Below the pieces are notes generated by a model that saw nothing but the letters and a program-made list of their open reading frames with translations, had not been told where the DNA came from and made no database searches. A stretch of 64,000 bases of DNA, taken from the NCBI RefSeq assembly GCF_037042905.1, contig NC_087251.1, forward strand, positions 24,182,001 through 24,246,000, in the 5' to 3' direction. Below are positions 23,962 through 56,011 of the stretch, in pieces (the first letter of the stretch is position 1; the number at the start of each line of letters is the position of its first letter). The position numbers were made by a program, and so were the translations under genes. Source of the DNA: Lytechinus pictus. Lineage: Eukaryota.

Positions 23962-26091
23962 GTATTCTGGTGACATTTTCACAAAAATTATGCATATCAA
24001 GAGTCACAATTTATCCAACATTCAGATGAATGTGCAGGGAGCTTTTTACATCAAATGTGCGCACAGATCATCAAGCAGGAATGAATATTAAATTTATGTT
24101 TTTTTAAGCTCAAAATTCAATGAATTATTTATTCATCATACAAATATATTCAAACCTTGTGTTAAAATGAGCAACAGAGAGTTGATCAGAGGAAAATCCT
24201 GTGCACATCTCCCAAACAAAGAAAGAGAATGGAAAATAAGATAGAGAAGGGGAATACACTGTAAGGGAAGGAGAAGAAATAAAAATAAATCAAGCAAATA
24301 AAGCTGCAAAATGTAAAAGGTGAGCTTGTGACATAGTTTGGTTGCTACAGATGATATAACAAAATTTTCTTTTAAATGATATTGTCTGCTTGAAACAATT
24401 TCTCTTACGTCAGAGTTCTCATCTCACAAGTTTTATTGCACTTTTGGAGCGCTTAGTAAATAAAAAAATTCATCGTTTACTCCGGAGTGGAATCATAAAA
24501 TTGATTTACACCTGGTTCATGAAGGCATTCATCATATTCCATCAACATGGCATGAACATCTATTAATCATCATGCTAGCTTACTCTGTGCACACTTGGTT
24601 GAAGTGACAAGCTCGTAGAAGTGCCATCACAGCTTCCGACCATAATTCATGGCTCAACATGGCAATATAGCGAAATCAGAACAATGACATTGACTGCTAC
24701 ACAAACCGGCCCAACTTTCTCTTGATTGTAATAATGGATGTATTTGAAAGACATGAGAAAGACAGTGATAGAACTCAACTTGTTGGCTTTTGTGGTGTAC
24801 TGAAGTTTCAATACACCGAAATGTGATTTGTTTTCTAATCATCATTTTTTATCTATATCAATGCATATTTTCACTTGGTCTTCATCTATTCATTTTCTCA
24901 CTCATCAATCCCTATCTCCTTTTTTTCCACAAGAATAAAAGTCCAAAAGGTGTCATTTATCATCCCAACCTGCAGCTGCTATCCCACACAGAACTGAAGA
25001 TCCATGTACATAGCAACCATATTATCTCTCAACTTCTTCAGAGATCATTTATCACTATCAAACATTTTACAAATATTTCACCCAAAAAAAATAACCTTTG
25101 TATTGATCTAGTGTAAGATTATCAATACAGCAGATGCCATTCAAACTATGCTCAGAAAAAACGATTTTATTTTTCTTTTGTCACCAAACTACTTGACCCT
25201 TCTTTTTATATTAATTTCTCACTTGCTTATCTGGTAGTATTGTATAATGCTTAACCAGAGGTGATAGACCTGAAAAACAAACATGTATAACAAAGTCTAT
25301 CACACCTTTTTTATTGACTGCCATATTTCTACATATATTTGAACAACTAATTGATAACGATTTAACTGCTTAGGCAGTAACATATTCACATCTGGGGTCC
25401 ATTTCATAGTAACTGCTGTAACTTTGCCATTATGGCAACTACCATGGTAACTTTGATTTTGATTGGCTGCTGAGCCCTGTTGCCAGGGTAGTTGCCATAG
25501 TGGCAAAGTTACAACAGTTGTAACTCTTTATGAAACAGGCCCCTGTTCAAGGTGCAAAAGCACAAGACTTATTGTTCTGAATTATTTTTTTGTTGATATG
25601 AATTAATTTGTTCAAATACATTACGCACAAGAACCAACTTTTTCAAAAAATATTTCACTAAGAAAGAACAGTCTGAACAAACATTCCGTAGGACTTTAAA
25701 GAATACATTACTGACCCTGAAACTATCCAGAAAAGTTTGATCTTATTTTAGATTAGGTTAACTGTGAGACAAACCCTTTCATTTAATTCAATGTATTTGT
25801 GATAGGAATGATCTTGAATATATGAACATGATATATTGCATCTTATGTCACGCTATTTTAGCTTATATTCTGTAATGTATTACCCAATTCCTTATATTCT
25901 CAGGGTCAATGTTGAATTATACTATATACGCCCTTTTATCTTACCCCCTAAATCGTAATTGTGTTTCATTTTCGATCTGTAACTATATCTCATATGTATA
26001 TTTTGCAATCTTTTCATATCATCTATGTTTTTATGGTGAATGGAAAATACTGAAACTGAAATTGAATGGAGGAGTAACAAGAATCTTCTAC

Positions 26092-26298
26092 CTTATGTTC
26101 ACAAAGCTGCTCCAGGGTACTTCCGTCCTCTGCCGCTATGTATTTAATGTGAAAGAGTTTGCCATCAAACGTGTACCATGGCATCAGTGATTCCATACGA
26201 AATGGAAGACAACAGGTTGAGTTGGCAAAGAGACCTGTAGTTAGGCCTCTCACAAAGATGGCTGCTCGGTGAACTCCCCTGGAACTTACTCTAGGAAC
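26092..26298 (-). CDS. FAM120B: FAM120B-like coding exon 3
   Basis: Acceptor cctgcag, donor AAG|gtagaa, 207 nt, phase 0/0. Encodes RGVHRAAIFVRGL...ANSTCCLPF...PWYTFDGKLFH, the conserved FAM120 C-terminal motif. Confidence 0.92.
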
Positions 26299-27002
26299 CT
26301 GCAGGTACAATAATTAGGTTACACACCAGACATCAAATATCATTAATATCATTATTACTATTTTTCATTAATTATTATAAATATCAACATTAACATCATT
26401 CTTAATGTTCTTATTATAAAGATTGATCATATAAAGGAGAAGTGATTTTTCCTATGTCATGGTATACAGCAACTAATTTCACTGTGCCAAATTTGTTGCT
26501 AAAAGTCAAAGCTGGATAATTGATGATCCGCGAGTGAGCAAAACGAGCGACTGAAAAGTTTTGTCAAATAATAATAATAGAAAGGCATACTTTTGCCATC
26601 AAAATTGACTCTTCACCTATGAAATATGCAAGTGATTGCTCTAACTTTAGCATTCGGGCTGAAAATAGAAAAAACAACATTACATTAGGTTTTAAAATAG
26701 CGGGGTCACACCCCCCCCCTCCCCCTTGGATCATAGCTGATTATTTCAGTTTACATATTCCTTTCAAATTTGAGATATTATGTAAGGAAGGGGCCACTGA
26801 ACACCGAACTTGCGAATTTAATTCACGCCCCCTTTAACAATTCACTCCAAAGAAAAAAGAAATGCCTTATCAATTATTACAATTATTAATGCACTTTGTG
26901 AATTCATCAAGCACTTTGCAGTGAGTAAACCAGGATGGTGACACATGCTCTCTTATGCCCAGACAGTGGGTTATAAACCTTTACTTCTACCCAAAACCTA
27001 TA

Positions 27003-27774
27003 CAGTGCGTCCCACAAAAAACGAAACCGAGATTTATCGATGATTTATCATAACTTAATCACAAATACAATAGACAAATGACCTACCATTGTAAAGCTTA
27101 GAATCTCCTCTTTCATCTGATATTACTTAGATTATTTCTCATTCACGCATGAGTGAGCAAAAACAATTTGAAGAGGGGATACCAAAAAGTCATTTGGCGG
27201 GCTGTATCTGGGTTTCAAAAAGAAAACCACATTTTTAAAAAGTTCAATATCTGCTCTTTAATTTGATACCTCAATTACAGAAAATGGTCAAGAAATAACA
27301 AAGTTCTGGTTATTTGAAATAAGGCTTGAATTTCAATAATTTCATAAAATGAAGAGGTTTTACAGGCTAGCGTCCAAACTCACTCGACACTGCGTTTTGT
27401 TGACGATCAGCCATGCATTAAGTCTTTTGTTAACCATGCGATAGCTTCTGTGGGAAACCGGTGAAAACACGTTTATTTTATGAAATTATGGAAATACAAG
27501 CAATCTTTCCAGGGAACATAACTTTTTTACTTCTTGACCATTTTTTGTGATTAAGGTAATAAAAGAGCAGATATTGAACTTTTTAGGCATGTGATTTTCT
27601 TTTTGAAATTCAGATACCCCCCGCCAAATGAGTTTTTGGTATCCTTTCTTCAAATTGTTTTTGCTCACTCATGCGTGAATGAGGAATAATCTAAGTAATA
27701 TCAGATGAAAGAGGAAATTCTAAGCTTTACAATGGTAGGTCATTTGTCTATTGTATTTGTGATTAAGTTATGAT
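27003..27774. mobile_element. Tc1/mariner-like palindromic MITE, right end truncated
   Basis: Starts TA|CAGTGCGTCCCA; about 270-bp inverted arms (27047-27315 vs 27515-27774); outermost right TIR absent. Confidence 0.8.
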
Positions 27775-27817
27775 ATGATATGATATGACACTTTTGAAAA
27801 CTAATAATCTCACAAAC

Positions 27818-28098
27818 CTGCAATTGCTTCAGTGATGATGGGCTATGACCCTGGAAGCATATGGCTTGTGCTATGAAGGCATCAATATCACATGACCTTA
27901 GAGTAGACTCTGGAGCATGGAGGAGCAGAAAATGGAGGATGCAGCAGAGCAGGATGTGATGATCTGGGATGGCATCCAAGATTCCATCTTCAAAGAGCTT
28001 GGTACAGTACATGCAGGAGAAGAAGACCCGAAGGCGTAACCTTTTAACATCATCTGTGATATCATCAACGCAAAGGTCTTCTAATCTGGGATGAGGAG
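27818..28098 (-). CDS. FAM120B: FAM120B-like coding exon 2
   Basis: Acceptor ttaaccag, donor CAG|gtttgt, 281 nt (phase 1 to 0). Continues the frame: APHPRLEDLC...RLRLRVFFSCM...LLCCILHFLL...DIDAFIAQA. Confidence 0.9.
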
Positions 28099-28505
28099 CT
28101 GGTTAATGATAGGAGAAGTAATATTCAACTGCCTCTACAAGAAAAAAATCATGATTTAATTTCTATTCTCCATGAACTTGAAACATTGAGATTTCACCAG
28201 ATACATGACAAGGAGACACTAAATGAAAAAGATTATGTTAAAATAATATAGCAAAATGGTAAAGAATGACATGTAGAATTGATATTGCAATCATAAAGTG
28301 AAAACTATAGTAGAAAACCATGTGAATATAACTTCTACAATGACCAAATGGCAAAAAAAAAATTATTGGCTTATCTTTTATCAAAGACAGCCCTCTGTGT
28401 ACTTGGTATTTAGTTAGAATTTTTATTCTTTCAAAGTTGGTCATTTGTTTATTATCATTTACCGGTAAATAAAAATATATCATGAGGTTGAAGATGAGTA
28501 TTTAC

Positions 28506-29838
28506 CAATATCTAGGGGCATCCCCTGAACAACATCTGGGACATCCATTGGATTTCCAGCATAAGCACACATTTCTTCCACAGTTCCAAACTGTACTGAA
28601 AGCCCTCCTGCATTCACTGGTCCAGACACACCCACCGCGCTTCCTTGAACAGGTGACTGTAGAAGGATGCCATAAAGGCGTTGGCGGATAGGTCTGTACA
28701 CGAGACCAGAGGAAGGTGTGGCAGTGTCAGTGTCGTCATCCATGGTCATGTTACTTCTGTACTCTTGAAGGGCTATGACCTGCAGAACAAAGTCAGTAAT
28801 GTCCAAATTCCTGTGATAAGAAGCAACCTTGTTCATCACAGACTGGTTTATGTTTGATGTACATGATGACTCAACAGGAGCTCTTGCTGGACCAGCAGCA
28901 GCACCACTTCTGGATGGGACATCGCTCCCTTGCATCTGGTCACAAGCATAGTCCTGGATGCACTCATACAAGTAATCATGTTGGAAAGCTCTTCCTACAT
29001 CATAGGCAACAGAATGCAGGCTTGTTTTTGACAGGTCTCGTAGCTGTAAAGATCTGATATAACCTGCTACACTAGGAACAAGTGGATCACGTTTGCCACG
29101 AGTCACTCTTTTGTGGAACTGAGAGAGCATAGGAAAAGACACTGTGTCACAACCTAGTAAACAAGCAAGGAGAGGTAAGAACTGTGGAGGAATACCAAGA
29201 TGGTGACAAAAGATATCTCTCCTGAACAGTTGCACTTCTCTGACATGTCCATTGCTGCAGGTTATGTATAACCACTGTGGCACATCAAAGATCATGAAGT
29301 CTGTGTCCCTACTGACAATTCCAAAGCTTTTACTATTCCTGCAATGGAGAAACAGTTCTCTATCAACCTCTATGGAAGAATTGTAGATGGTAACTCCAAG
29401 GCCCTTCATTGCAAAACGTGTAAGAGTGCTAAGACTTGTTGGGATGTGAAACAGCTTGTGGTCAGGATGCCGTCCTGAATGCTTGATGAAATCAAAGATT
29501 TTGGAAACAGATTTCCTTTCATTTTGCCTCCTATCAATCCAGGTTTTAAATTTCTTCTTTTCCACAACTCCGTCAAACATAACAAGAAGCTCAAATCCAG
29601 CATTTTGAAAGTATCTTATAAACTCTTTGATGTGTTCTAAATACTGAAGCCATTGCCCCCCAAAGGCAAACTCAAGTGATCCATAGATATCCCTGATGTA
29701 ACCATTGCAGTCAATCAACAGCTGAGGCTTGGCGTTGTACCTTTGATAATACTGGTCAGCTAGTCTTCTGAGATCCACACGTTCAAAAGCATCAGGACAT
29801 TGTCCTTGGACATAAGACAGCAGTCCTCTCACACCCAT
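28506..29838 (-). CDS. FAM120B: FAM120B/SAN1-like protein, coding exon 1 (PIN/XPG-FEN1-like nuclease domain); exon starts at the acceptor at 29893
   Basis: 452-aa ORF begins MGVRGL..CP and contains LIDC, GGQW, MFDG, WIDRR, TRFAMK.LG, EVD, DTDFMIFD and LLGCD, matching the FAM120B N-terminus as I recall it. Polypyrimidine acceptor (ttctctctccttccctag) before 29893; donor G|gtaaat at 28506/28505, phase 1. Confidence 0.93.
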
Positions 29839-30947: not shown

Positions 30948-31968
30948 CACGCCATTTGATTGACTTTAAAAACAAATAAAGAAAAAAAATTGATGTATGA
31001 ATCCTTAATTTTGCAATGTTATTCTTACCTCCCTGCTATTACGCAAATACTGTCTCCTAATATCAAATAATATATTATTGGTAGAAAAATAAGTTTAGGG
31101 GTATACACAAGTAAATGTGTCCAAAATCACCCCCCCTTAAGAATAACCTACCCATCTCCTCATTTGCATGTCAACAAAGTTTACATGTACTACGAATGTA
31201 GGACCAACGAGTAAATTAAAATTCAAACTGCATCCTCCTACCCTATAATAGAGCTTGAAATACTTAGTATTTTGCCAGTGTTATGGTAGGCCTGCAACAA
31301 AATACTTGCATTATCCAAAGCATAAAAATAATGAAAATGTTTGCTTCAACTGTTCTAGCATGTGGATATTTTTAGCATCCAGATGAGATTCATGATATTT
31401 ATTGGCAAATGCAAATTTTTTAAATCTAGCACCGCTCATGATTTTGCCGCCCTCTATACGCGTCTGGTGGCTAGGCTACATAACAAAGAAGACAAGATGG
31501 CGACAATAACAGATTGTGAGTAAACGCTCACGCTCTTAATTATTTTTCAATATTGTTACACTTTTTTAATAAATACACTCACCATTAGTGCGTGCGGGGG
31601 GGTAAATATACTTGTAGCCCATTTACATAAGTTTGGGCTCAAAACCCTAAACCACTCATTTTATTGAACAAGGTTACGATAAAACGGGCCTAAACTAAAG
31701 TTTTGATTTTAACTAAGTTTAATCGGGGGAAATGGCATGCCGTCCCTGGCTCCATGGAGATTAATTTAATCTCTAGGAGCCTCCTGGCTACACTAGTGTG
31801 AGTGAGTCTAGATTAAAACTTTCAAGTTTTAAGATAAAAAATAATCAAAGCCAAAGGACAAAGGTCAAATTCAAAGCTGTGCAGAAATAGATTAAGTGTT
31901 AGTTTAGCTCTTAAATGCCAGGTGAAAAAAAAATCAGGTCATCTATTAAATCAATATTGGAGAGTAAA

Positions 31969-34444: not shown

Positions 34445-35262
34445 AAATGTGGAAACAGAAATTATGCACTTACCACGATTATATGGATGAAGGTCTATCA
34501 TGACACACAAATCCTGACATCGAGGCACAGACTGGAACCTCAAAAAAACAAAAAGTTCTGTCGCGATACCTCTCCTTCTTTCAAAATTCAAAACAAAATG
34601 GCCGATCGAGACCGAGGCTATATTTGGTTTTTTTGAGGTTCCAGTTATTAGCTCACTGCAACCATCCTGCCTGTGGGGAATCTACAGGTAGGACTATCGT
34701 ATGCCAATGCTATACAGAGCACACACTTTAAAAAATCTTTAAAATATCACTTTTGTGACCAAAATTACTAATTTCCATACAGTTGCAATTTATTTTTCAT
34801 TAGTAACTTGGGAATAATTTTTGTATTCACCAGAGCGCTCAAAACTTGAATTTTGGGCATATTTTTGTGTATGCCCTCTACTGGTGGAAAGTAATATGGC
34901 AAGAAAATTTTCATTTTTCAATCTCTATTTTTAATTAAGAAAAAAATAATTTAAAGAATCAAATTTACTTAAGAGCCAAGTTGTATGATGAATAGGTGTA
35001 ATGGAAACTGTCAGTGTAAAAAAATCAAGCATTTGTCCCAAAGAAAAAGAGAAAATAAGCCAAACATTGCCACCCTTAGCTTATTTTGCCACACATGGAG
35101 ATATAACAGAGAACCACTCATTCAATGAACAAGGTTATATCATAACCTTGTTCATTGAATGAGTGGTTCCAGCTCCAGTCTGTGCCTCGATGTCAGGATT
35201 TGTGTGTCACGATAGACCTTCATCCAAATAATCGTGGTAAGTGCATAATTTCTGTTTCCATA
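34445..35262. mobile_element. Diverged, interrupted relative of the palindromic element at 39516-40129
   Basis: 34452-34620 aligns with the left arm and 35173-35257 with the right arm (cctgacatcgaggcacagactgga; cacttaccacgatt). Confidence 0.75.
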
Positions 35263-35338
35263 TTCTATTAAGATTACTATTGAGACCCCAATCTTACCCC
35301 AGTCCCGTGTCTCCTTCGTTTTGCACGGTCGACTCCTG

Positions 35339-38300
35339 GGGCCCGTTTCTCAACACATGGACAAGTTAGTCATATCTTTATTCACCAACCACGGAGTTAG
35401 TTCCAATCTTACTAAACCTGTTTCTCGAAAGGCTTCCTAACTAGAATACCTTGATATCGATACTATCGGTAAAAAGAGCAGACGAGACGTAGCCTTAGTC
35501 ACAAAATAGCATAATTTTCAAAAAGAAAAATTATGACAAAATTGCAAATATTATGATGAATTGGGAAATTAATCTTTTCAAAATAATAGCACATGTGAAT
35601 TATGCATCATACATACTTAGACCATGAAGACTGGAGCATTCAATTGCAGAGAAAATTAAATTATGAATAATTCATTTCATGACTAAAAAATCACTTGTGG
35701 ACGTTTAGATGGGTACCCCTGGGAGACCCAATTTTACGAAAGTAAACCATAACGGTTTTCTTTGTAAAATGATAATTATACAGACTTTTATGATTCCAAA
35801 CGTCATCAAAATATAGTTTAACTAGACATTTTTAATCATTGATACCAAAAGATACGATATTGGACAAATTATATGCATAAATTAGATATAGAATTCATCC
35901 AACTGTTAATAGGGGTCTGAAAACATCAATACAAGTTCAGTTATGGATGGCATGACGTGGTAGAATCTTTATCAATTAAATCATTTTACTATTTCAAAAT
36001 GAATGGTTTTGTAGCGTTTACCAACACCTGAGTCGAATCGATTTTAAAATCGGTGTTCGATCGATGTCATCGAACACCGGTGCAGATTTTGCAAAATCAG
36101 CGCATCGAAAAAAAAAAGGAAAAAAATGTCGGCCGGCCGATTCGTTCAATGGTTCACACAATCAATTATCAAAATATCAGTTATGTCCAACTTGACTATT
36201 ACTTACTTGATTTCTATTGCCCCCAAAATGAAACCGATTGTGTAATTATGATGCTTATTCACCATTAATTTGCAGTTTATTTCGATCATAGTTCGAGTCT
36301 TACTCGTCTGCTCGTGCCGAGATAATTTATGCACGATGAATTCATGAATGGAAGTCATGGCCATCGATCGTGCATGCGCAGTAGGATGGGGGATCGGGTG
36401 TCCGGACAGTTTATATTTTTGAAGCCTTCTTTTTTGTCTTTGGATTACACTATAAATATGAATTCAATACTTGTAATCATCTTCTATTTTGTTCTTTATA
36501 ATATTTCCTAACATTTTGTACTAAAAATTGATGAAACTTCGCTTGTAATTTTTTCCAAATGACTTTCTAAAATTGATCGTCCGGACATACAACCTGTCCG
36601 GTCACACAACAACTGGGTATACTGTTCTTTAATCAAACCAGAAAATGGCCGGAAATTGACGCGATCAACGTAAAATAAATCTTGCTTTCATGAACAATAT
36701 TAATATCATGACCACAGAACATTATTTAATCATAATATTTAACTATAATTTGCATATGATAATCATTAATATGAATTTAGAGCTTGATGTGAAACGTTTG
36801 TATTTCGTTTCAATTTTCAATGGCGGACATCTCATGACGATCGACTTGAGTCGAGTGAGTGCACTTGTCTAAAAAAAAATAATTATCACGTCAGGATTGA
36901 TTCTCAAACATTGTCTACATGCAAAAACTCTTTTCAAAATCGTAATATCACCATATAATAACATTTTACATGACAAAACAGAGAAAATTGCGTTTTATAT
37001 TTTTTTCCCATCAATTTGAAGCTAGTTTGTACCCAACTTTGGGCTCTGATTTCATGAATGGAAAATATGTCATATGTCATCGAATTAACACGCATGCGCA
37101 TTATTCTTCTTTTCTCGGAGCTCGGAGACGTCCAGAGATGGAATAACAATAGAAATAATGCCAGTATTTATTCTTCCATATGAACATAACATACTTTGCT
37201 GACATTGTCAATATTCTTAGTATGACCATAAAATCTTGTTAAATCGTAATAATTTATATGAATCTAGGGCTCGATTCGAAACATTTGTATTTATTTCGAT
37301 CGCATGCTCAATTGTGTCTAAAAAAATGGGTTGTCAGTATCAGGATTAATTCTCGAACATCGTCATAACTCATATTCCACAATCTTTCCTCACAATCGTT
37401 ATATCAGCATTGAATAGCAATTGAAATGACCATCCAGAGAAAATTACGTATTTATTCTCATAAATTTATTTGGAACTCATTTTGGATCCATCTACACAAT
37501 CTCAAGCAAGTTACAGCGCTCTCCGTTGGTTGCACTTGTTTGCTGGCGCTGACAAGCACGCCTGTCATTTCGGGAGAGTGAGTGTAGACTACGGGGCTGC
37601 GGACGGGACTGGTGAATGCGAGTCTGGACTGCGAATGCTAGTCGACCGAAAATCATTCGGATCGACTCTGCGTGATTCATGTCTTTATTATTGTTTCATT
37701 TTAAACTTATATGTTGTCATCTGCAAATATCATTGTTGAAGATATTTTGGGAAGAATTCTGAATTGGTCCCCCGCCTTTTTTTGTGTTTTGTGGTCATGG
37801 AAAATACAAACGAACTTTGCTCTGTCATCACATACCGTCAGTGCGTATAATGCATACATTCATTTTCCCCGCCTTCAATATTCGATGCATCGATCGAATT
37901 AAAGCTGTCGAACACCGGTTTTCAAAATAATCGATATGACTCAGGCTTAGTTTTTATAGTTTCTTTGTATTACAATTATCATTGAATGCATTAGCCCCCT
38001 TGTTTTGTGATGTAATTTCAACCACTATGATTGATTACGTAAGATTATAATTTTAAAATTTCTAGGCACTTTCGCATGTCATAGTCTACCCACGTACACC
38101 CATGGGTTCATATTGTCTCGCGTGCGAAGGAATATCAGTCATATGCACGCGACACACACGACACATCCAAAATATACTGGGCTTTTGCCAACATAAAATA
38201 TCACGCATAATCTGGTATTTCACATTCTGCTATGACACTTACCGAATCATTTAGATCCCTCCGTGACTTCTCCTTGAAGTTTCTTTTAAAAAATATGTAT

Positions 38301-39293: not shown

Positions 39294-39515
39294 CTGGAGT
39301 CACCCAAGGGTTCATTACATGCCGCCGCGCACAGAAAAATCAAGCCATAGAAGTCGTGTGTTGTGGACCCAAGAAGTGAGATCCCAGCACGCGCGACCCA
39401 CTACTTAGAAATCCACTGCCAAACGTGGTTCGTGGTGCGAGGTTAGTATACGGGCTACTAACCTCGCAATACGTGTGAGAGCCTGGCTGGGCTCCGGCCC
39501 CTTCTTGGGTTACGC

Positions 39516-40129
39516 TAACCCAGAGAGCTCCAGCCCGCGTAGCGGGCTGGAGCCCAGACGCTCAGTGTGCAAACGGGCATTCAGGTGAGAGTACCGTGAA
39601 GTTTGGTCAAAATAATTTTGATAATACATAATTAAAACAGAAATTAAGCACTTACCACGATTGTATGGATGATAGTCTAACGAGTGGCAGTTTCCTGACA
39701 TCGAGGCACAGACTGGAACCTCAAAAAACGATCAGTTCTGTCGCGGTGGCTCTCCTTCTTTCAAAATTCATAGCAAAATGGCCGTTCGAGAGGGTGTAGG
39801 GCGCATGCGCGAATTTGACAAAGTCTATATGCGCTAGTGCTATACTAGCCTCGGTCTCGATCGGCCATTTTGTGTTGAATTCTGAAAGAGGAGAGCTACC
39901 GCGACAGAACTGATCGTTTTTTGAGGTTCCAGTCTGTGCCTCGATGTCAGGAAACTGCCACTCGTTAGACTATCATCCATACAATCGTGGTAAGTGCTTA
40001 ATTTCTGTTTTAATTATGTATTATCAAAATTATTTTGACCAAACTTCACGGTACTCTCACCTGAATGCCCGTTTGCACACTGAGCGTCTGGGCTCCAGCC
40101 CGCTACGCGGGCTGGAGCTCTCTGGGTTA
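39516..40129. mobile_element. 614-bp palindromic Mutator/MULE-like element with ~275-bp TIRs
   Basis: TAACCCAGAGAG / CTCTCTGGGTTA termini; arms essentially identical for over 200 bp; exact 9-bp duplication GGGTTACGC at 39507-39515 and 40130-40138. Confidence 0.9.
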
Positions 40130-43100
40130 GGGTTACGCCAAACTCAGATTACAGTACGTGGGACCATTATCATGAGTGCGTAAACTTAAGAGTACATTTT
40201 ATCAGTTACCACGTTCATTTATTTGGATTAAGGATTCAAGTATCATATCATGTTATCACAAAACAATGAAAGCACAAAATAAACTGGTTACACTTACAAG
40301 CATAAGCAAGCTAACAACAAATTTCACGTATAATACAGTATAATATCTTCTTCGATACAGATTTCGTCGACTGCTTCTTCCAAGTTACGGTATCTTCAAA
40401 GATACATGTCAAGTTGAAAATGTACATATACATCGTGCTTTGTGCGTTCAGGGTGGCGTGTCAAGAAATGACTTATCCGACGTTTTATCCGTCAAGTCCC
40501 ACTTTATCCGACAGTTACCATAATAAGGGAAAGATTTAAGATCTGACAACTTGTCGGACAAAAATGTTGATGAAACGCTCTCCTGCTCAGGCACAGACCC
40601 TGATTGACACTTTGATCAACAAGTGGGTCTCCACGCAAAGACTAGCACTTGCAAAACTTCGTGTTTCAATTCTGAGCGAGTAGAGATGGCCTTCAGTACA
40701 CAATGCGTTATAGGCTGCACATTGAGACCTTTAACACGAGTGAAGGGTTTGCAACTTTGCACAACAGACTATGGTTCATAAAGCTTTTCCAAATTAATTG
40801 ATTTTTTTCATAGGGTGGTTCTAAAATATTTTATCAATAAATTAAATAATCCAATTATCTAGAGGAAGAAGAAGAAGAAATCATTTTTTTTTAACACGAA
40901 AAGATGAAAAGGTTGTAAAGCCCAAGTTGTACGCATAATAAAGCAGGATAAATAATGATCACATGACTAAGACCTCTTTAAAAAAGTTTATATTATGTTA
41001 TACAGTAATATCACTACTGGATGTTGTAATCTTTGTGTGTGTGTGTGTGTGTGTGAGGGTGTGTGTCAATTGCTCAGCACTCGACTTCCGATAAAATTAC
41101 TAAGAGAAATAGTCTTTCAGTCATCTTAGTCGTAGATAATTACAAGAAATGCACATGAAAAAAAAAGAATTGTTATCGTTTTATGTAGGACTTTCATGCA
41201 AGCTAAACTTCCAATACCTACCCCCCCCCCCCCCTTATCTTTCTGAATTTCATCTCTATTTTAGGTGTTTCCTTTCCCGCCCATTTGTTACCAGCAGGTC
41301 GCTTAAGGGAAAGAATATCTGCGATAACACCATTTTAGTACAGTGATTTGGCGCACCCGCTGCTTTATGAATAGGCTTACGCGTTATTTATCAAACACAA
41401 TGTTAATACCTGCAGTATCATTATTAGGGCAGGGACAGGTGCAGGTAGTGATTTCACATCGAAAATTTGAACCAGATCTTTTCTAATTTCTCAACATCAA
41501 CTGAACATTATATCAGTAACAATGGATGAATCTATAAACACTCGGTCACTTTCATTTATTTTGCTCTGTCTTGTTTCAATATTTAATTTATATGACTGCA
41601 TGAGTTAGAGTTATGTTTACACGACTGATTTTTGCTCCTATCACACCTTGGTCTATGTGATTAACTCACGAGACATCAGACGAAACAAAAACAAAAACAT
41701 ACGTGTTGATGGCATAAAAAAGGGCGTAGGCTGGGGGATGCACTGGGTGCACGTGGCACCCTCCCGCTGAGGCAGAGGATCGAGTTCCGACACTGGCAGC
41801 AAAACGAAATTTGTACCCCTTCTGCTTTCAACAGCTGATTTTCCAAATTTTAGTTCCACCTCCCCAAGATGTGCACGCCCATACCACTTCACCTCACAAG
41901 GATGTGAACCTTCCCATGCTTTAACTGACATTACGTCCTTGGGCATTATGTGAACCTCAACCTGATTATACCCCCAATCTTGAATGGGCCTATAACAATT
42001 AGTTGGATTATAATACTACTAGTTTGATTATGTTGTTTTTAATTGTATGGAGTTATGGAGTTACATTTAGAAACTGTTTTTCAATTTTGAACTTGACAAG
42101 TATAGGTTGCTCCATGGTTTTAGGTTGTAATCTTGCAATGTAGCCTATTGTAGGCCTACTATCACATGTATTAATACTGTGACAAGAGAGGAAATTTGAC
42201 CAAAGTCAGATTAAACAAAATAATATATTCATAGTGCCTCGAGCATCTATGCCTATTGCTATCTCCTTTATTATAGTTAGTTGACAATAATTGTGTTCTT
42301 GTAAATATTGAGATTTATACCTATTTACTTTACAAATCGTTCGATTTACCTTTTTTTTCTTTTTTTTTAATACTAATTTCATTCATTGATTATAATGTTT
42401 TAGTGCTATATCAGATTAAATCATTAAAATTTACAAATTATTAGGAATTATAAAAAAAAATATTGTGCCCCATGTATGGTAACCGACATGCATGCAAGTC
42501 AGCAATCATTCATGCAGGCCTATTGGACATGCATGTATTTTTTCTAATGAAAAAAAAATCTATAGTTCGACTTTAAATAGATTCATTCGAAGTCTGGTCT
42601 TACTGTTACCAACAAACATTGACACGTGTCTCGCATAATGCTACAATCAAAGGATTTTAGCATGCTAAACGAGATAACAATTTTGTTCTTCACTGTGAGG
42701 TCAATTTCCATTCGACCCCTGCTTGCCACAACAAAGGTCTCTCTTGCGCAGGTCCCATTTTGTGATGCACCCGTCCATCGTTATGCCACAGACTGTGTTC
42801 GGGTAAGGGGGGGGGGGGGCGATTGGGAGAGAAAACGATATACAGACAGAAAGGTGAGAGACAGGGAGAGAAAATGAATGAAAATGAAGTCATTGGTGTA
42901 AATGGGAAATGTGTTGGTATAGCGATTGGCATGTCATGATTTTGGGCAAATGAATAGTTATGTGGAGGAGAGAAGGACAGAAAATACTGTTAGAGGAGGA
43001 GGAGGAGAGAAAGAGAGAGAGAGAGATAGAGGCGGAGGGAGAGAAGGGGGAGGCGACACGGATGTACGAAAGGTAATAGTCTAGTCCCTAAGTTGAGTTT

Positions 43101-46100
43101 CTTTTGGCGGGAAACTTTCTGGCAGCACCTGGTGAGATCGAAGTCGAAAAAGGGCGAAAAATAAATACCATAAATATCAAATGAGAATGAAAAAGGCAAG
43201 ACACCTGTCCACCCCTGGGAAGATGATGGAGGTTATGAAGAAGATAACAAACAAACTAGAATTATTGGACTTTGGCACGGGCATCATGCTAACAAAACTC
43301 CGGGTCGGTATTAAGAGCACAGTCCGTTTCACTCCGTGTGCGCTCCGCCTGTTGGCGTTTTAGGCCTACGATGTGTCGATATTTCATTTTTTTTTTTTCA
43401 ATTTGTTTCCCCTCCATCGATTCGTCTTCAAAAATTGTGTGTCTGAGGGAAAGCCATGTAAAATCACAATTGGAATTGAGAATCATATTAATGACAATAT
43501 CAAAATAACGTCAATAAATGCTTCCCTCACTTGTCTTATATTATCAAAATAATGATAAAAGTATACACCCGCTGTTTCATTGAGGCATTATCTTGGATCA
43601 TTCTGAACTTAAAATTAGCCGACTTGCTTGCAAATATGAGGTACAATGACAATTTAATGTGCTTTCCGATGTCTCTAAAAACTGAAGGACTGTGACATCG
43701 ATTTTAACGCATGATTAATTTCCCCATTGACTGTCTTCAATTAACTGGCCCATGGGTGCCTGGATCTGTCTGCAGACGATATCACATTGAGCCCTAATTT
43801 TGGCGCGCGCGATTTTGTTGGTCGCGTGCCAGAAGAGGACGGTGGCACACGCTCTTGCATGCATCGGGGCACGCCCCTTGTTAACGGAACAGAGGATTCG
43901 GAGTTTATGGACAGTTTGTATCGACTCGTTAGTAGACAGTCAACCTTCAAAGCAAACGATGTCCTCTCAGCTGCATCAACCATGGTTTAGGTACGGCCCT
44001 ATGGAAGGCCCACTTTGCTTCAAAACATATCACGAAACGGATACATTAAACATCAAATAAAAACAAAAACACTCTCCAAGGCAAAAATATTTTAACCCCC
44101 ACTAGAACAGGTATAATCATTCAGTGTACGATGTTTTCTCCATACATGGTTCATCATTTGTTTCGAATTTCATGTGTTATTATTAATTGATTGATTTATT
44201 TATCTATCTATTTATTTACTTACTTATCTATTTATTTGTTTATTAATTTGTTAATTTATTTATTTTCCTTTCCATTTTCTCTCTCTCTTTCTTATTTTCT
44301 TTTCTTTCCACCCTTCTCCATTTTAGGAGAGATGGGTGCATGCAATTAAGGTGTTGTTTTTGTGCTGAAGCAGACGTATTCAATGTGTTCATTCATGGTT
44401 GGTTAAATGCGCCTACTATTCGTTCCATTCAAATAAGACCGAGAGGAAATTCGAAGTGATCACTATTCTGCCCATTGCTATTTTAAAGGTAGCCCCTAAA
44501 TTTAAAATGAGAATAAAGTGATTAAACATCGTTGGTCAATTTTTTTTTCAATTTATTTATCTGGTAAAATCTAACCATTCCCTGACTAAAACTTAATTCT
44601 GGTATATGAAAAGATCTCTTGTCATAAAAGTGCTTACAGTTAATCTGTAAAACATCTGACAATGCAAATTCAGGACATATTCTTATCACAACATTTTTAG
44701 ATAAAATAATGACTCTATTTTGGCCGTCGTATACGATCTGTTTTTCTGGAGGGGGGCCGGGGGGCTTAAGAACCTCTATCACTGTAAAAGGAATATTGGG
44801 TAAATTTTTGATGGAATTTTTAGCATTTTGCTCTGTAAATTTTACTCTATTTATTTAGGTATAAATATTTTCAGACCGGAGTACCCCTTTAATCATGAAC
44901 TTAGGCGGAACAAATCAAGATCTTTGGGGGCACGAGTATATACCACTATTATGGTAGTAGGTCTATGTATACGGTATATGGCTAGTGATCTGAAAATTAC
45001 ATTAGAGACCTTGAACTAGTTTTATATATCCAAACGTGAACATAGCGATGAATATATCTCACCGGGGGATAAGCTATATTCTCTTCAGAATATTCTCTTT
45101 TGTACGAATGAAACTTATATGATAATAGAACAACCACTTCCTTGAAAGATAGATAAATTCAAACCGTAGATGAGGAGAGGATGCTATGGTGAGGGGGGGG
45201 GGGGGCGATATCCCTCTTCAAATTTAGTAATATAATGAAAGAGGAAATGAAATCAACAAAGACAATCATGCGTATTTCAAAATTGTTGCATATGTGCATG
45301 TGTGTGTATATATAATATTATGCCTACTTTTTTCGAAATTGTGAACAACACGTTTGTTTAACACTTAACATTCCACTTTGATTTGTATCGAAAAAAAAAA
45401 TAGATTTTCTTTTTCACATTTGAGATAATTTAAATAAAAGCCTTGCTTGGTGTGAGTGATTAGAAGTTATTCTACAGACACAATGCAAGTAGTGTTGCTG
45501 TTTTGCAAAGCCTGTACTACCAGCATTAAAAAGAGAATGAATTATTAATATTGTATCGATACTAAGTACAGTTGCACGAAAATGTGTCCGTGACATGCTA
45601 AGGGTTAAAATAGAAATGTAAAGTTTTGAAAATAATTTGGAAAAAAATGCATATTTATTCCTTACGGTATAGGACCCCAAAAAAGTACAGTATCAGCATT
45701 GCTGTATTGGGCTATCCTCCGATACGTTTTATTACTCATTTTGTATATCTTTTTTATTATATAGGCCTATTTATTCTTATCTGTTCGGAAATAAGAAAAA
45801 AAAAATAAGAGACTCTAAAATAGCAAAATCATCAATATAATTTTATGCAATTCATAAATCAATTCGAATTTATCTTAAAAAAAAAACAATAGCCGTGAGA
45901 AGTTAGATATCATTAAACATGATATCAGTTTGCATAATATTCAGAGGTAATGGAATAATACAAACACTTATTGTTCAAGCACTTTCAATTTATTCTGTAA
46001 ACAAATACATACACCGGTGAGTATATCATATTATTTTGCCGTATACTGCAACACGGAAATTGGTGTTTAATTTTACCAGACGTCCTAACCACAGTTCACT

Positions 46101-47446: not shown

Positions 47447-49439
47447 AGAAATAACGTAATAGATTTGGTCAGTCTGGATTCAATTTAGTGTCAGTGGAGC
47501 CAGTGTTAATGGTTGTGTTGTTGAATGAATTTATTGATGGAATCCTTCGATGTTATAAGTAAATAGGTACCGATTAACTTCTCGATACCTATATCAAACA
47601 AGGAAGCGATGCCACCTATTATTATCGGGAATGTTATGCATTTCAAGGAATACCTATACCATGCACGTCTCAGAATGCCGGTACCACGGAGTGGTATAAG
47701 GTCATTCTTGATAACATTATTTGCTGATGAAGCATGCTAACTCCAAAGGGGGGGGGCAGGGGCAGTTGTCCCATAAATTTTGAACTTACATTTTTTCACA
47801 GTAAATTTTTACAAAATTCATAAAAAAATAATTATGCAAGAAATCCTTCAATTTCACTTTACTAAATACAAAAACGCCCAAAATGACAAGTTCGGTCGCT
47901 TCGCTCCTATATATAGCTTTAGATTTTTTTTAAGTTTACGCGTCCTGCCCCCCCCCCCCCCCCGCAAAACAAATTCTGCGTTCGGCTATGCTAAACCTAT
48001 CCAATTATCCTCATCTCCACCGCCATCCTGGCCGATCCTCCCCCTCTTTATCTACCTATCTTATATCAATCCAGTTTCATATTTTTCACTAAATTTATAT
48101 AATTTCACTTTGCCGTAAGAGTCCGATGAACGGATGGTATTTTTCAATGACCAGACCACGCATCCTCAGAATTCAAAGTTGAACAAAGTAACATTAACTT
48201 GATAACAAAAATCATTCAAACACAATATTATGATTTCACCCAAATTATTCCAACATCTTGTCTTATCGCTGTAAAAATTATAAGACTATTTTTGGGGTGT
48301 TGTGTTGGAATGGTTCGGGCACGCTTTTTCAATAATAATCTCTTCCAAGTGTTCGAAAATGATGACAGACCCACATTTCTGTCGCGTGCCCGGCACATGG
48401 CCTCATAATTTGCGAACGCCACAAAGAAAAAAAATCCTTGTTTATACCCGTATTCAACAAATGACGGCAGTAGTTAGGTTATATAAACTTCAAAGAAACT
48501 GATGCTTAATAACTTGTGTTAATCATGATTATGTGTCCACTGAACAAACAACGCCTTTGAACCTTGAGGCCGTTTGATGATGGGGCTAATTACTCCAATG
48601 AACATGATGGTAGGAAGCTGAATGATTCGAACAATTCAAGCTAATCACAGCTACCAACCTCCACCACCAAAACGACAGATGGTAAAGGAGGAGTAAACTC
48701 AAGTATTACGTAACGGAGTTAATGAACATTTACTATACGTGGAGTTATTAATTAACACGTCGCGTGGGCTATGAGGCTACATCGCGTTCGCGTGGTGTAT
48801 ACAGATCGCGTCAAAACGTCGACATTTTGCATTTGCATGCAGAACTGGAAAAATGATGTATGCCTTCCAACAAGGAGGTTCAATAATCATTTGCACATGA
48901 ACAAAGCATACAGACATTTGCACTGGAAAGTGTGCTATATAATATAGTTATATTACGATTTGATTACCAAAACAACCATTATCAGAAGATTTTTTTGGTG
49001 GGAGGGGGTGTGGTAAAGACCATTTATTGTATCATATATACAGTGTTGTCTAGTCCATGTTGCATTGTCTCACTGCGTTGTTCTGATACATTTTGTTTTT
49101 CTGTGTGGGATATTTTGGGGGGATATTTCAGTTCCAGGTATTTTCTGATCGGGAAAAAAATTGTATGTTTATTACTACCTACAACTACAAAAACAATGCA
49201 GGAATAACTACAAAAATTAACTTGATAGAAGTCAGATCCATTTGAAAAAAAAAATCAAAACATTAGGCCTTGACAGAACAACAATGGTGGTATTTTACGA
49301 TTTCCTTATCAGTTTCCTCCAAAATAAAACCTTTGCAATCGACATTAATTTCACAAGGGACTCATATAATTCGGTATACGGGACAAATCTGAATCTTTAG
49401 TGACAAATTAACCCAAACATGAAAGAAAAGAGAAATTTA

Positions 49440-49980
49440 ACCATGGACATATATGATTTAACCAAGCTTAATGCTGAAATATTTATCACAAACGGATGTA
49501 AAGTGAGAAAGTTACGCTAAATTTTACAAAGCAGTTAATCCTGGTCGGTATGTAAATGAGGGAACCAGTATACGTCGCCCACTCACTATTTCTGTATGTT
49601 ATTATAATAAAAATAAAATATTCTAATTTTCTCTTCATTACAATGTGACACGACGATTGATTCCTCACAGATTGTGGCATTGTCATTGCTGTATAACCAT
49701 CGTGATTTGATAAAGAGTTTCCCCAATGTCAAATCTGCAAAACAAATAAATATTGTATACATGTCATTCAATAAAATACAACCTAAATGAATTCTTCATT
49801 TGCCTATCACTGCGTTGTGAATAATAATTATTATAACTGTGCTGTGAAATGAAAATAAATACAATTCTAAGATGTCATAATTTTCTTATTACTAATTCGA
49901 TTTTGATGAAATCTTCAGCATTATTATTTTTCTCTCTTTTTATTAATTTCTTCTTTTGGTGGGGGTGAATTTCCCCTTTA
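49440..49980. mobile_element. Degenerate Kolobok-like family A copy (another degenerate relative at about 11887-12350)
   Basis: Shares cctggtcggtatg.aaatgagg, cactcactat and gattttgatgaaat with 10622-11234; ends cctttaa. Confidence 0.6.
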
Positions 49981-52058
49981 AAGGGTAAACGTGGATTAGG
50001 CTATACTGAGGGTCGTCTTTCGACAGATTTGGTCTGACTTGCATGCCTGATGTATTCGTTTCAGTAGAACTTTTGCTCTTTATCAACAACATAACGATGA
50101 ATATAAAAATTTAAAGGTTTTTCGGGCTCTACAACTATTATAGGTTTCAAATCTCATTTCTATATAAATTGATTGACAATTAAGTTTTTTTTCAATTCAC
50201 TTTATGAATATTCATCATAATAGACATCATCACTCGAGTTTTATAGTAAAGATATAGAAAAAAAAGATATAGCATTTTATCCAAGAACAATATATAGCGG
50301 CTATAATTATGTCAGTGACAGTCGGTTTGTAAATTGGGAGTCGTAGATTGGAAAGGATTGACCCCATTTCCGCTATTATACCTCTCACCCATGACCTCTC
50401 ACGAGAATCTGAAGGAGAAAAGGAATGAATGATAAAGGCTTTTCGATATAAACCGAAAATACGATTTTTTTAACTTCTCAGTTTTCTTCAACACGTTGAA
50501 GCACGTATTATTGTTTGACAAAAACGAAAAAAATATAGGCTACTCGTATAAATGTAAATAATAATAGGACAGAATTCCTCATAATAGACATTTTATACTA
50601 TGTGAAAGCAACAGATGTTCTCCTCAAACTTGACCGTTAAAATGACTGTCCGCATGGGTTGGTCAAGATTAACCGCCCCTCTTCATTCGTGCTTTTGAAG
50701 ACCGACCCAAAATACTGGTTCATTGATCGATAACTGATCGATAATGCCTAATTTTTGTATTGTTCAGTGTTATGCTCAGTTTCGAAAGCACTTTTCCTAT
50801 TTCACACATCGTGCGTATAGTTAGCGATTAAAAAAAATAGCCTATAGACCTAGTGCACTTTGTATCAAAATAATAAAAATAATTACTCTTACTTGTGTAT
50901 TTTATTCTGAGCTGTTTACATAGTGGTTAAGTCATAAATTGCAATTCTAGGCTTAGTATGACAATGAAATAAAACGAAATAATTCCTGACAGATTTTCCG
51001 GGAGATTTTCTCTCCTTTCTCTTATTGAACAGGATGATAGAAATCCATCAAGGACCAAATACATCTTTCTGCAGGTGGAAATCTTGAGATGCAGCAACGA
51101 GCACGATACTTTGATCAGATCTATTTTGACATTCAGCATGAATGGTTCAAAGGTCAAGTGCAACGTCATGTCGACATGCTCATTCTGTTTACCTTGCACA
51201 TGCGCTGTACTCGCGTTCAATTAAGGGGTCACGACCCAAGGGTAGTTTAGATGTCTTATCGGCGAGTGCACATTTTGGCAGATCAATTTATAGGAATGTT
51301 GAGAGCGAAAGAGAGAGAAGGGGGGGGGGGGTTGAGAGAGAGAAGGGGAGTGGGATGGGGTGATGGTTGAGATTTTATAATGGAAGAACCAGTTTTACAT
51401 TGTTATTGGGCTGGGCAGGAGAGGAACTAAATTAACAGGTGGTTACTGGAGAACTACCAGCTACTATTTCGGAGGAATATTACACGTGTGCTCTAACTCC
51501 TATTATCAAGAAACCCTTTTTTTAATTCAGATATTTCTAGTCGAGCGGGGTTTCAAGAAGCAACATAAAAACGGAGAATTGACCAAAAGATTTACGAAAC
51601 AAAAAAATTACAGTAAAAAAAATGGAGCTCAATCTTCTTGTAAATAATTTGACCTTTTCATACTTTGTTTTGTATTATTAAACCAGAGAATCGTTAGTGT
51701 TATGGCGTTGAAGCATAGGACTACATGGTTTCAAAATAAGGTTTCACTCATTGAGAATGACCCAAAACACAGGATCATAATTCGTCTTTCCAATCCATAG
51801 AAAATATATTTCGGTTTACACCTCTCAGGTGTTAGAATTTGAAGAAGCAACCCTTGAGGTAGAGCTTAGAGAGAATTGGTCTATTTCGATGCAGTGGGTC
51901 TTTTGAAGAGTGACGGGCTACACCAGGGGGCTTTGTCTATCTCGACCTAGTCGTTGATCGTTTCTACGTGAGCGAGTCCCGAATGGAACAAAGCTAATTA
52001 CACTCAAATGTGGAGAAACAAAGAGACAGCACACGCTGTTGGTGTACGTCGTAAAGCC

Positions 52059-52966
52059 CTCGCGTGCCCCTCGCCCCCTCGCTCGTGCCAACGACAAAAC
52101 TACATTGTCGTAGAAGTCACTCAAACAATAGTCAGCTACTGTAAGGGCAGTGCCATTACACTTTGTTTATAAAACCAGCCCTCGCGTGCCTATTCTTAAT
52201 TTTATACCCTCCATTCTAGCATTAATATGCAGATGAGAAGTTAACTATCTCGGGAACTTATGCAGATGGTACCCAGCTCTATAGGTCTTAACTTTACGCT
52301 TGTTTGAATGGTTTCATTGACAAAAGTAGCCTTCCATCATTTATTTATTTGGGCTTCCAATGGTTATTGAATAAGACCAAAGAGCACAGATCGATAGTCG
52401 TTTTTAAGTCGCGTGCCCGGAGTAGATCCATTTTTTTTATTGACATGTTCTTTTGTCATGTAGATGTATTGATGCCTCCGGATGAGGATTATGACAGACG
52501 CTGACGAGAAGACGCCCCCTCATCAGCTCCTTTCTTGCCCTGTTGCGCAAACACCTCGTTCTATACGTCCTCAACCGACAACCATCATCAGGTTTTTCGT
52601 AATTACCAGTTAATCCACCATGTCCAGAGGACAATTGCCTCCAGCTGGACAAAGCAGGGGTCTTCGCGTGCCGTCGCGTGCCTAAGTCACTCCTTAAAAC
52701 AGCTTAATTAAATATTCATAAAGGGACGCGTGGGGATCGACTTCTGAACTGCCCATCCAAGAAGCTACTGAATTCCTACAGCTCCTGCAAGACCATATAC
52801 TGAGGATCTAGAGTTTAACGAGTTACTAAGTTACTAAGTCGCGTGCCGTGCCAACACTCTTGATCCCTTGCTGATCTTTAGAACGGGAGATGTTCTTTAT
52901 CTCTGTAATAATTTGTACCCCAGAGTGCAAAGGTATTTGTTCTTATCAGCAGACTTTATGCACCTG
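52059..52966. promoter_or_regulatory. Candidate cis-regulatory module: cluster of Hairy/Hes-type GGCACGCGA sites plus E-boxes
   Basis: Six TCGCGTGCC in 52059-52847, one CTCGTGCC, and E-boxes CAGATG x2, CAGCTG and CACCTG, all in unique non-tandem sequence. Confidence 0.7.
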
Positions 52967-53111
52967 TCGCACGCTTGTTGCTCCAATAGAGGTAAAATTG
53001 ACATCTTAAGATGAAAACGACGATAACCCGAATTGAAAATATAGGCAGTTGTAAGATGGTATACAGCAAAGTCATCCGCCTAAGATCGAAACCCAGTAGG
53101 GTTGATTTTTA

Positions 53112-53293
53112 GGAAATGTTATGGATTAGTGGATAAGTTCCCGGACTTTGAACCACTGTGTCCAGAGTTCGAATCCCACCGCAGTGTTGCCCTTTGCCGA
53201 GACGTTAATCATGTTAATCCACAGGTTAATAATAATAATAATCGTATGGCGCTGAGAAACATGAAGCAATATGCAAATGTTGCATATTATTAA
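53112..53293 (+). mobile_element. Degenerate tRNA-derived SINE
   Basis: A-box-like tggattagtgg, B-box gagttcgaatcc and an AT-rich tail ending tattatt; no intact cloverleaf. Confidence 0.65.
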
Positions 53294-53479
53294 GAAAATG
53301 AAAAAAAAATGAAAATCCCTAATATGTTGTTGGAAATGAAATCTGAAGCGGAAATAGAGCGAAAATTATTTTTGTCCAGTTGATCGTGGGCCCGGTAGCC
53401 ACTGTGCAGTGCAAGATCGATGTAGCACAATCTCTTGGATTTGTGAATGCCAAACATGGTAGCAGGCTACGGCAGCAAC

Positions 53480-54120
53480 TTTTTTTTTTCACTTTTTTTA
53501 AAGTTTTTATTGGGTTTTCATGATTTTATGTTTTTGTTTGCCATACCGGATGGTAAACACTCACCACATCGACCTCGGCTACCCGAAAACACTCTGTATG
53601 TATGATATAAGCATGATGAATATAAACACAGTACTGAAACCACTAACGAGAATGGGTGTATCGACAAAATAAAATATAAAAAATCTGACATTTAGAATGA
53701 AAATAAACTAGATATAGTCATAAGGGAAGTTTAATTACTTTGAAAATAAGCTTTCTTAGGTTTAGGATAGCACAAATCATTTTGGACGCAATGCCACCAT
53801 TTAGTTACATCCATCATCCATTTTGTCATTTGATTGAGAGCTCCAGTGTGAAACCAATATACATCCTACACATCAGCATTGGTTTGCTGTTACTGTATGA
53901 ATTCAATGAACATTCAAGTCGTCCCCGTATTGTAAACGGTCATAACTCTATGGTTATAGCCCCCATTCACATTATTGAATCAATTGCACAAGCCCAACTA
54001 CCATGCAACCATCTAAGGTGTTGTCCTAAGGGTTCGTAGCATGATTTATCTCATTTTCTCAAAATGGATGAAAACCCGGCTAACACGACAACATCTGGAC
54101 AAAAGATGAATCTATATGCT
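53480..54120 (-). mobile_element. Possible 5'-truncated LINE (L1/Tx1-like) remnant
   Basis: On the minus strand AATAAA is followed by an A-rich tail at about 53480-53511, with degenerate coding-like sequence upstream. Family assignment is weak. Confidence 0.35.
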
Positions 54121-54631
54121 TGCGTTTGATTAATTTCATTCTAGTCGCCACGAGGACATTATATTTGGGTTTATCTCATTTATTTCCATTACCAAAAGCA
54201 GAATGATAGATAGCCTTATGTTTTATTATCCTCTTTGTTATAATTTTACAATGAGCACGCGTTTCATTTTCTTGATGCACTAAAAATGGAGCATGGAAAT
54301 AACGAAGATTGATCGGTTGGAACTTCTGACACCCTCTCCAGTCTCTAGAACTAACAATAAACCCACACTAATCTCGAGTTCGTTCCATAGATTGGGTTGA
54401 CTATATAGCTAGATTCATGTATTACGTGTTTAAATCATAATAACACGGCAAAGCAAACAGTTATAACCGACTAGTTGATACGAACAGTTTACAAACTAGT
54501 TTACAAGGTTCCCTCTTTAGTTTTGTAAAGGCTCGGATAATAAGCAATTTTCGGTCAATTTATCATCTGTGAGTTAAAGAGAGAAGATGCGGATATTGGC
54601 AGGATAAAAACTCGGTAGCTCTGTCATGTCT

Positions 54632-54777: not shown

Positions 54778-56011
54778 GTGGCTGTCGGTAAGAATGAGAC
54801 GTGTAGGATAATAATACCCCGTATTGCGGTACTATCTGCTTTTTTTTTTAATTCATAATTGCTACCACTGGCAGACAGATGAGGGACTTGAGGGCCATAT
54901 CGACCCCGAAATTTTCATGACTAAGGGAAAAAGGGATAAAAAGAAAGAAAAGGTAAGGGAAAATGTGATACATGATTATCACAAATTAGATTTTTGTATA
55001 AAAAGTAAAAGGTTATTTGGATACTAAACATTAATAGTTTTTCTCTTTTCTATTAAAAATATCTTGATATCTGGACCAATTTGAATTGATGCACGTAATC
55101 GTAATGTGTGCAATCTAGAACGTGGATTAAACAATCAAAATTTAACCACCCAGCGCGATGAATAATCATAATTATAATACCCATAAATCAAGCTTTGCCA
55201 ACATGCAAAAAAGTTTGTGGGTAGATCCAAAGCAATAAATCTCACTCCCTTGTCACCTACCGGAAGAGTAACACATTTTGCGGTATATAATCTGAATACC
55301 AGTAATTAAAATATGATTATTCACACACCAGAGTGTGTGTCTCTTCTAAATAAAGTCAGTGACATTCTTATTTCATCTAATTGTAAGTCAGTAACAGTAC
55401 TATCATCTTCTACAACTCTATACGCTTGTCTGTATTGCGATGCGTAGTTCAACATAATGAATTAATGTTTCCACTAAATCATAAAAAATGAAAAGTATGG
55501 AGTCGATTTCAACTTAAAATTTTACTAAGCAGGAAGCAGTAATATGAACTTAATTCTATAATTGTCCATGTGCAAGATCAATCTTCTCCAAATAAAAAAT
55601 AATAATCTGAATACCATCAGTTATTAAGATCACAGAATGAAATCATAAATCACGGTTACCCTTTACATTCATTTCATACATGTATGATAATGACCTTTGC
55701 ACGAACATTATTAAAGGCACACCTGTTCACCTGCTTCGGTGTTTAAAAAGAAAAACCCATTATACATTGTCGATTCACTTCATAAACCGACAAAATATCG
55801 TCGCATTATTTTATTACCAGGGTCGTCGCGTGGCGGCGTCGTGTATTGATATTGCGATATGGTATCTAGTTTTACAAGGCCTCAAGCAAAGTTTGTCTGT
55901 TTAATGCCCGTGTTTGCCATAAGTAAATTTCAGTGTGTCATGTAAGATAAATGTTTAGTTTCAGTGTAATATAGGACAAGATACTTCAAAATTTATCATA
56001 TTCATTTATCA

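Follow-up and report, generated by a model that had tools for sequence, protein, structure and literature searches.

A conserved non-coding block of Lytechinus pictus with a dense, co-oriented cluster of Hes-type sites: a candidate distal control module

A stretch of 64,000 nucleotides of the Lytechinus pictus genome (contig NC_087251.1, positions 24,182,001 to 24,246,000 of the forward strand; hereafter the window) carries a short segment in which one nine-base word, TCGCGTGCC, recurs again and again in the same orientation. This raises three questions: whether the segment that holds the word is functional, which factor would bind it, and which gene would respond. The arrangement of the sites suggests that the segment is likely to be a distal control module of a known kind, at which Hes repressors would silence a neighbouring developmental gene. 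For the whole chain, in which a functional Hes-repressed module probably serves Delta, we consider the chances to be evenly balanced; the individual steps differ in strength, and are taken in turn below.

The site cluster and the block that contains it

Six copies of TCGCGTGCC start at 52060, 52182, 52409, 52664, 52674 and 52839, within 790 bp and all on the + strand, exactly as listed in the original prediction for this DNA. That list overlooked two further exact copies, at 43822 and 48382 and likewise on the + strand, which bring the total in the window to eight. In 100 dinucleotide shuffles of the window the word occurred 0.02 times on average and at most once, and Markov models of orders 1–4 predict 0.04–0.20 copies per window; the figure of about 0.1 copy per window proposed originally falls within this range. 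The probability of finding at least six copies in 790 bp is at most 3.5e-19, and the word is thus far above both the shuffle and the Markov backgrounds of the window. To control for the post hoc choice of the word, we determined for every 9-mer of the window the densest cluster that it forms in 800 bp outside tandem arrays, and ranked the 9-mers accordingly. TCGCGTGCC came second of the 21 9-mers with at least four copies, after an A/T-rich word near 30.2 kb. The shorter word TCGCGTG occurs 14 times to the right of 38 kb and never to the left of it; we dropped this asymmetry as evidence because the left part of the window is depleted in CpG.

The features of the block, and two outlying sites, are as follows (a dot marks features to which no strand is assigned).

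43821–43830, +: outlying full 10-base site, inside a patch of 50% GC at 43700–44000
48381–48390, +: outlying full 10-base site, with two more TCGCGTG words at 48760 and 48788
51725–53062, dot: candidate cis-regulatory module, a conserved non-coding block of ~1.3 kb with 43% GC and a CpG observed/expected ratio of 0.89; its limits are the extent of the contig from run X12 (organism B) itself
51931–52654, dot: five ACAAAG words (51931, 51988, 52018, 52161, 52649), which we take to be Sox-like
52060–52068, +: class C Hes-type site 1, TCGCGTGCC
52082–52089, +: N-box-type variant CTCGTGCC (reverse complement GGCACGAG), which fits Hes and not an XRE
52182–52190, +: class C site 2, with 5 extra upstream bases in common with site 1
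52226–52235, +: first copy of TATGCAGATG, in which the E-box CAGATG (52230) overlaps a presumably octamer-like word
52259–52268, +: second copy of TATGCAGATG, with E-box CAGATG at 52263
52408–52417, +: class C site 3, matching the achaete Hairy site at 10/10 bases
52642–52647, dot: E-box CAGCTG
52664–52682, +: class C sites 4 and 5, head to tail and 10 bases apart; site 5 is a 10/10 match
52727–52732, +: seventh CACGCG core, inside ACGCGTGGG, which fits the HesC consensus and not TNGCGTG
52838–52847, +: class C site 6, a 10/10 match, followed by a repeated half site
52961–52966, dot: E-box CACCTG

The positions given earlier for CTCGTGCC (52082) and for the E-boxes (52230, 52263, 52642 and 52961) are all correct. 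Identical or related sites also form smaller groups at 43700–44000, 48280–48830, 38080–38180 and 55825–55834, which may represent further Hes-bound modules. We note that the three closest spacings between sites in 52060–52732 are 21, 10 and 52 bases, or 2.0, 0.95 and 4.95 helical turns, so that these close pairs would share one face of the helix; the comparison is post hoc and on few spacings, and the four longer spacings are out of phase. There is also a TATAAAA word at 52168–52174, eight bases before site 2, with no transcript downstream of it in RNA run X20.

A coding or RNA gene in the block was considered and rejected: three frames tested within the block gave no Pfam match, Rfam gave 0 matches, and a scan for exons under strict splice criteria to the right of 31 kb, block included, gave no candidate. 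Run X20 has zero depth over 51536–53082 (one library, of which about a quarter was read).

The block is single-copy and is not a repeat. It contains no TRF array, and none of its self-matches in the window exceeds 20 bases. One long contig in each of two runs (X1 and X12) spans it at a depth of ~60, as in the unique flanks; repeats reach depths of hundreds to tens of thousands, contig depth not being equal to copy number. A multicopy repeat, which would have counted against the original prediction, is therefore not what is found here, and its statement that the sites do not form a tandem repeat holds too, the spacers having no similarity to one another.

The block is also less diverged than its surroundings. 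The X1 contig (51310–53336) has 56 differences in 2027 bases (2.8%), against 145 in 2936 (4.9%) in four flank pieces (p 1.3e-4), three short pieces in repeats being left out. In organism B, the X12 contig (51725–53062) has 71 differences in 1338 bases (5.3%), against 183 in 1870 (9.8%) in its flanks (p 3e-6), which here are all seven pieces listed. Over 48000–54600, for the longest pieces listed, from close relatives only and with differences that are not independent, the block thus shows about half the divergence of its flanks in each of two further urchin data sets. With its lower divergence, its flank-like depth and no coding frame, it behaves like a constrained single-copy non-coding module, and is very probably a functional element.

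Run X8 (13.3 Mb of contigs), which was picked for holding part of 50500–53500, has seven records in the region, four of them in repeats and three at 51810–51973, 51985–52329 and 52431–52700. These three non-repeat contigs cover four of the six sites at a depth of 4–6. An open-chromatin or pull-down library could give this pattern, and GC bias could give the same. A restriction-digest origin was rejected: there is no PstI or SbfI site in 51600–53100, and no listed enzyme accounts for all of the contig ends, as read by eye.

The sites might also have a neutral origin, as what is left of a local duplication or an old repeat that has decayed around a GC-rich word spared by chance. Pairs of sites have 14 and 13 identical bases in common, 4–5 beyond the word itself, which suggests that local duplication may have produced some of the sites; short slippage duplications adjoin site 6, and tandem duplication would give co-orientation directly. 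Against a neutral relic, not only are the spacers dissimilar, but the 36–64 kb region contains eight exact copies of TCGCGTGCC and only three one-mismatch variants, all of them altered at the last two positions, which is not expected from decay. The word also turns up 4 and 8 kb from the block, each time with unrelated sequence around it, and the block itself is better conserved than its flanks and lacks the high depth of a repeat. We consider such a relic highly improbable.

The factor that would bind the sites

The Hairy consensus has been given as ggCACGCG(A/C)C, and the achaete probe that Hairy bound in gel shifts contains GGCACGCGAC (PMC449821, in the part available). All eight exact copies of our word match the first 9 bases of this consensus and five of the eight match all 10, so that these five are identical to the achaete Hairy site read on the opposite strand. 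The original identification of the reverse complement with that site is accordingly confirmed against both the consensus and the probe (PMC449821, same part). The match at the tenth base is itself more frequent than expected: a G precedes TCGCGTGCC in 5/8 copies, the background frequency being 0.196 (p 0.009), and precedes TCGCGTG in 8/14 (p 0.002); within the cluster alone the figure is 3/6 (p 0.09).

Urchin HesC is listed with the consensus CACGTG or CACGCG (PMC5859501, supplement file 5, in part). The block contains seven matches to this consensus where 0.8 would be expected, and HesC is the only enriched set among the 12 published urchin factor consensus sets scanned there. The Hes-type sites of the block comprise the six exact copies and two variants (52082 and 52727), both of which lie outside the pattern TNGCGTG. 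The block contains no class B site CACGTG and no Su(H) site; the metal-response element occurs once, against 0.74 expected. Judged by the match of the sites to these consensus words, the factor that binds them is probably a member of the Hes family.

Several bHLH classes bind CACGCG, so that the sites might be read by another factor with this preference, such as Myc/Max/Mnt on a non-canonical box, a TCFL5-like protein or Hey, or else by a zinc-finger protein. Such a reading fits poorly with a block in which the canonical CACGTG is missing, and with a GG flank and tenth base that match the Hairy probe exactly, and we regard it as very unlikely.

The orientation of the sites needs separate discussion. 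All eight copies of TCGCGTGCC are on the + strand (p 0.008), for which binding by a Hes homodimer does not account; this is a point against the Hes reading. An asymmetric heterodimer site would make sense of it, and AhR/ARNT, a bHLH-PAS pair, has the consensus TNGCGTG, with the second position free. All six sites of the block fit this pattern. Moreover, the T at position 1 is invariant in 8/8 copies, no copy of the variants with A, C or G there occurs in 36–64 kb, and the Hairy consensus would allow a second base at this place. The cluster might on these grounds be an array of AhR/ARNT-type response elements, either alone or in competition with Hes. It would then resemble the XRE clusters upstream of CYP1A genes, likewise homotypic groups of TNGCGTG within ~1 kb; it differs from them in its invariant N and its Hes-type CC flank, and the window yielded no CYP1-like gene. 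The free position is in fact C in 14 of the 17 TNGCGTG words of 36–64 kb and in 6/6 of those in the block, the CC flank and tenth base follow the Hairy consensus, and the two variant sites are not XREs. We therefore consider an AhR/ARNT array decidedly unlikely. The earlier argument that the CC extension favours Hes over AhR is only partly right: the invariant C at position 2 and the two non-XRE variants are better arguments for Hes, and the invariant T at position 1 fits AhR as well.

The Hes class C site (CGCGTGCC) and the AhR/ARNT site TNGCGTG overlap in precisely the invariant word. This would allow the co-oriented array to act as a competitive switch between a bHLH-PAS activator and Hes repressors upstream of Delta, a long shot to which we give very little weight, although if true it would give the sensing of ligands or microbes a direct link to Notch signalling in the urchin. 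A composite HES/XRE element reportedly exists in the mammalian HES-1 promoter; our literature search for a composite HES/AhR element gave no match.

Activating inputs and the target gene

Returning to Hes as the probable repressor, we asked what the block offers to activators. Class A E-boxes (CAG[A/C/G]TG) occur five times, against 1.42 in shuffles (p 0.02), and ACAAAG five times, against 0.99 (p 0.003); both p values are uncorrected, and neither excess survives correction for the 35 patterns tested. E-boxes of any kind (CANNTG) number eight against 5.25 (p 0.16), and the published Sox word AACAAT is found once, against 1.5 expected. The proneural-type E-boxes are thus interleaved with the Hes-type sites at the places reported, and are barely above chance in number. 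Activation of the module by Sox and proneural factors is on these motif counts a tentative proposal, somewhat less probable than not. The description of the block as a Hes-repressed, bHLH-activated enhancer fares likewise by halves: consensus matches and constraint bear out the first part, and enrichment for the second is weak.

The two copies of TATGCAGATG are 33 bases apart, each with its octamer-like word overlapping the E-box. The pair recalls the composite proneural/Brn logic that a 2006 study by Castro is said to have described for mouse Dll1.

The block has one Ets1 site, against 3.7 expected, and 0 Alx1 sites. This argues against a double-negative-gate enhancer of the micromere type, and favours a role that is neural, or later, or one of silencing alone.

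The only gene identified in the window lies ~20 kb from the block, which is upstream of it.

17395–29838, −: FAM120B-like gene, with coding exons at 29838–28498, 28099–27800, about 26313–26092, and 17463–17395

Its product is 98.4% identical to a Lytechinus pictus protein, and 99.3% and 95.9% identical to the two other members of the same protein cluster. To the right of ~31.7 kb no convincing coding frame was found, and 16 frames, hand-picked from 283, gave no Pfam match at the curated cut-off. Delta was not found in the window, and literature matched by accession numbers near the FAM120B proteins gave no placement of it.

DLL1 and DLL4 descend from one Delta, and in the human genome DLL1 and FAM120B are arranged head to head. 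The two are neighbours at 6q27 (PMC3924830, in part). Because human DLL1 adjoins FAM120B in this way, Delta is a likely target of the block, and we consider this assignment somewhat better supported than not. Delta would most likely lie to the right of the window, with the block upstream of it.

The composition of the window changes between its two parts. The CpG observed/expected ratio is at most 0.45 in 12 of the 15 two-kb bins below 30 kb and 0.74–1.31 in all 14 bins from 36 kb, which suggests a boundary between methylated gene bodies on the left and an unmethylated, gene-free stretch from 36 kb. Between the two is a possible bidirectional promoter (31022–31586), with AAGATGGCG, presumably a YY1-like word, on the + strand at 31494 and a donor-like GTGAGT near 31516; on the minus strand there are donor-like words near 31022 and 31577, which would serve the FAM120B leader. 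A rightward transcript from this region is possible. Further right, 39505–40141 is a near-perfect inverted repeat of 637 bases (91.5% self-match), foldback or MITE-like, to which pieces at 34453–34620 and 35174–35270 are related.

The module might instead be Hes-bound and act on a gene other than Delta, whether FAM120B, a + strand transcript that begins near 31.5 kb or some unseen gene further right, or it might receive no activating input and be purely a silencer. The window shows no Delta, FAM120B at ~20 kb is the closest gene identified, a + strand ATG is followed by a donor-like word at 31494–31521, and the weakness of the activator motifs would suit a pure silencer. However, FAM120B and the neighbourhood to its left are CpG-depleted in the manner of methylated housekeeping gene bodies and 36–64 kb is not; this gene-free, CpG-retaining stretch of 28 kb is in keeping with a region upstream of a developmental gene, and human synteny favours Delta. 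Another target, or pure silencing, is in our view unlikely.

Taking Delta again as the probable target, we propose the following mechanism. Homodimers of Hes (HesC or a paralog) would occupy several class C sites at once and would recruit Groucho through WRPW, turning the target off wherever Hes is present; Groucho recruitment is established for the Hes family (PMC449821, in part). With strong sites in such number, repression would be dominant and would act as a switch, a behaviour required for lateral inhibition or for the double-negative gate. The weaker part of the proposal is that, in places without Hes, the ACAAAG words and E-boxes might be used by Sox and proneural bHLH factors to activate the module; this would imply neural or later expression of Delta and not the phase driven by Ets in micromeres.

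Hes repression of Delta is a core link of both lateral inhibition and the urchin double-negative gate. HesC acts as a repressor of delta in both urchin and sea star, and most such network links still lack cis-regulatory proof (PMC7719182, in part); the double-negative gate itself is described in bioRxiv 10.1101/2022.03.03.482868 (in part). A compact block with six exact sites is a ready target for reporter and deletion experiments, and could show whether an upstream module carries the Hes–Delta link and whether the number of sites sets the sharpness of the switch.

Comparison with known systems

This cluster is not described in any of the literature matches listed, and PMC10322840, PMC11076791, PMC10970066 and PMC8527612 (with its supplement 2) contain nothing on these sites; an orthologue may be in Revilla-i-Domingo 2004/2007 or in Smith and Davidson 2008. 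The closest relatives that we can name fall into two groups, according to whether it is the site or the module that is alike.

The achaete Hairy class C site has the identical word of 9–10 bases, and its target, as is probable here, is a neighbouring gene of the neurogenic pathway (PMC449821, in part). Drosophila Hairy targets have 1–4 core sites per gene (one in prd, three in egh, four in stg; same source), whereas here there are six exact, co-oriented copies in 790 bp, far from any promoter seen. The gcm P module of S. purpuratus has one copy of the same 10-base site, and is the only match in the first 400 bases of the modules listed (PMC3339872 supplement, in part), against six in 790 bp here.

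Among modules, the S. purpuratus delta modules R6 and R11 are alike in repressor class and probably in target gene, and R6 responds to HesC knockdown (PMC3339872, section 9, in part). With 3 mismatches allowed, nothing in the window matches the R6 forward primer, which is uninformative at such an evolutionary distance. R11 is said to be an Ets-driven micromere module downstream of delta; the candidate block differs from it in having few Ets1 sites and in that it would lie upstream of Delta. The CAN region of the Atoh1 3′ enhancer similarly brings together an N-box, class A E-boxes and a class C box, the last of these repressive, within a single module (PMC5655970, in part). There, three abutting boxes form one composite element, whereas here the boxes are dispersed and class C sites dominate. 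The mechanism that we propose is thus a familiar one; what is unusual is the density, the invariance and the co-orientation of the sites.
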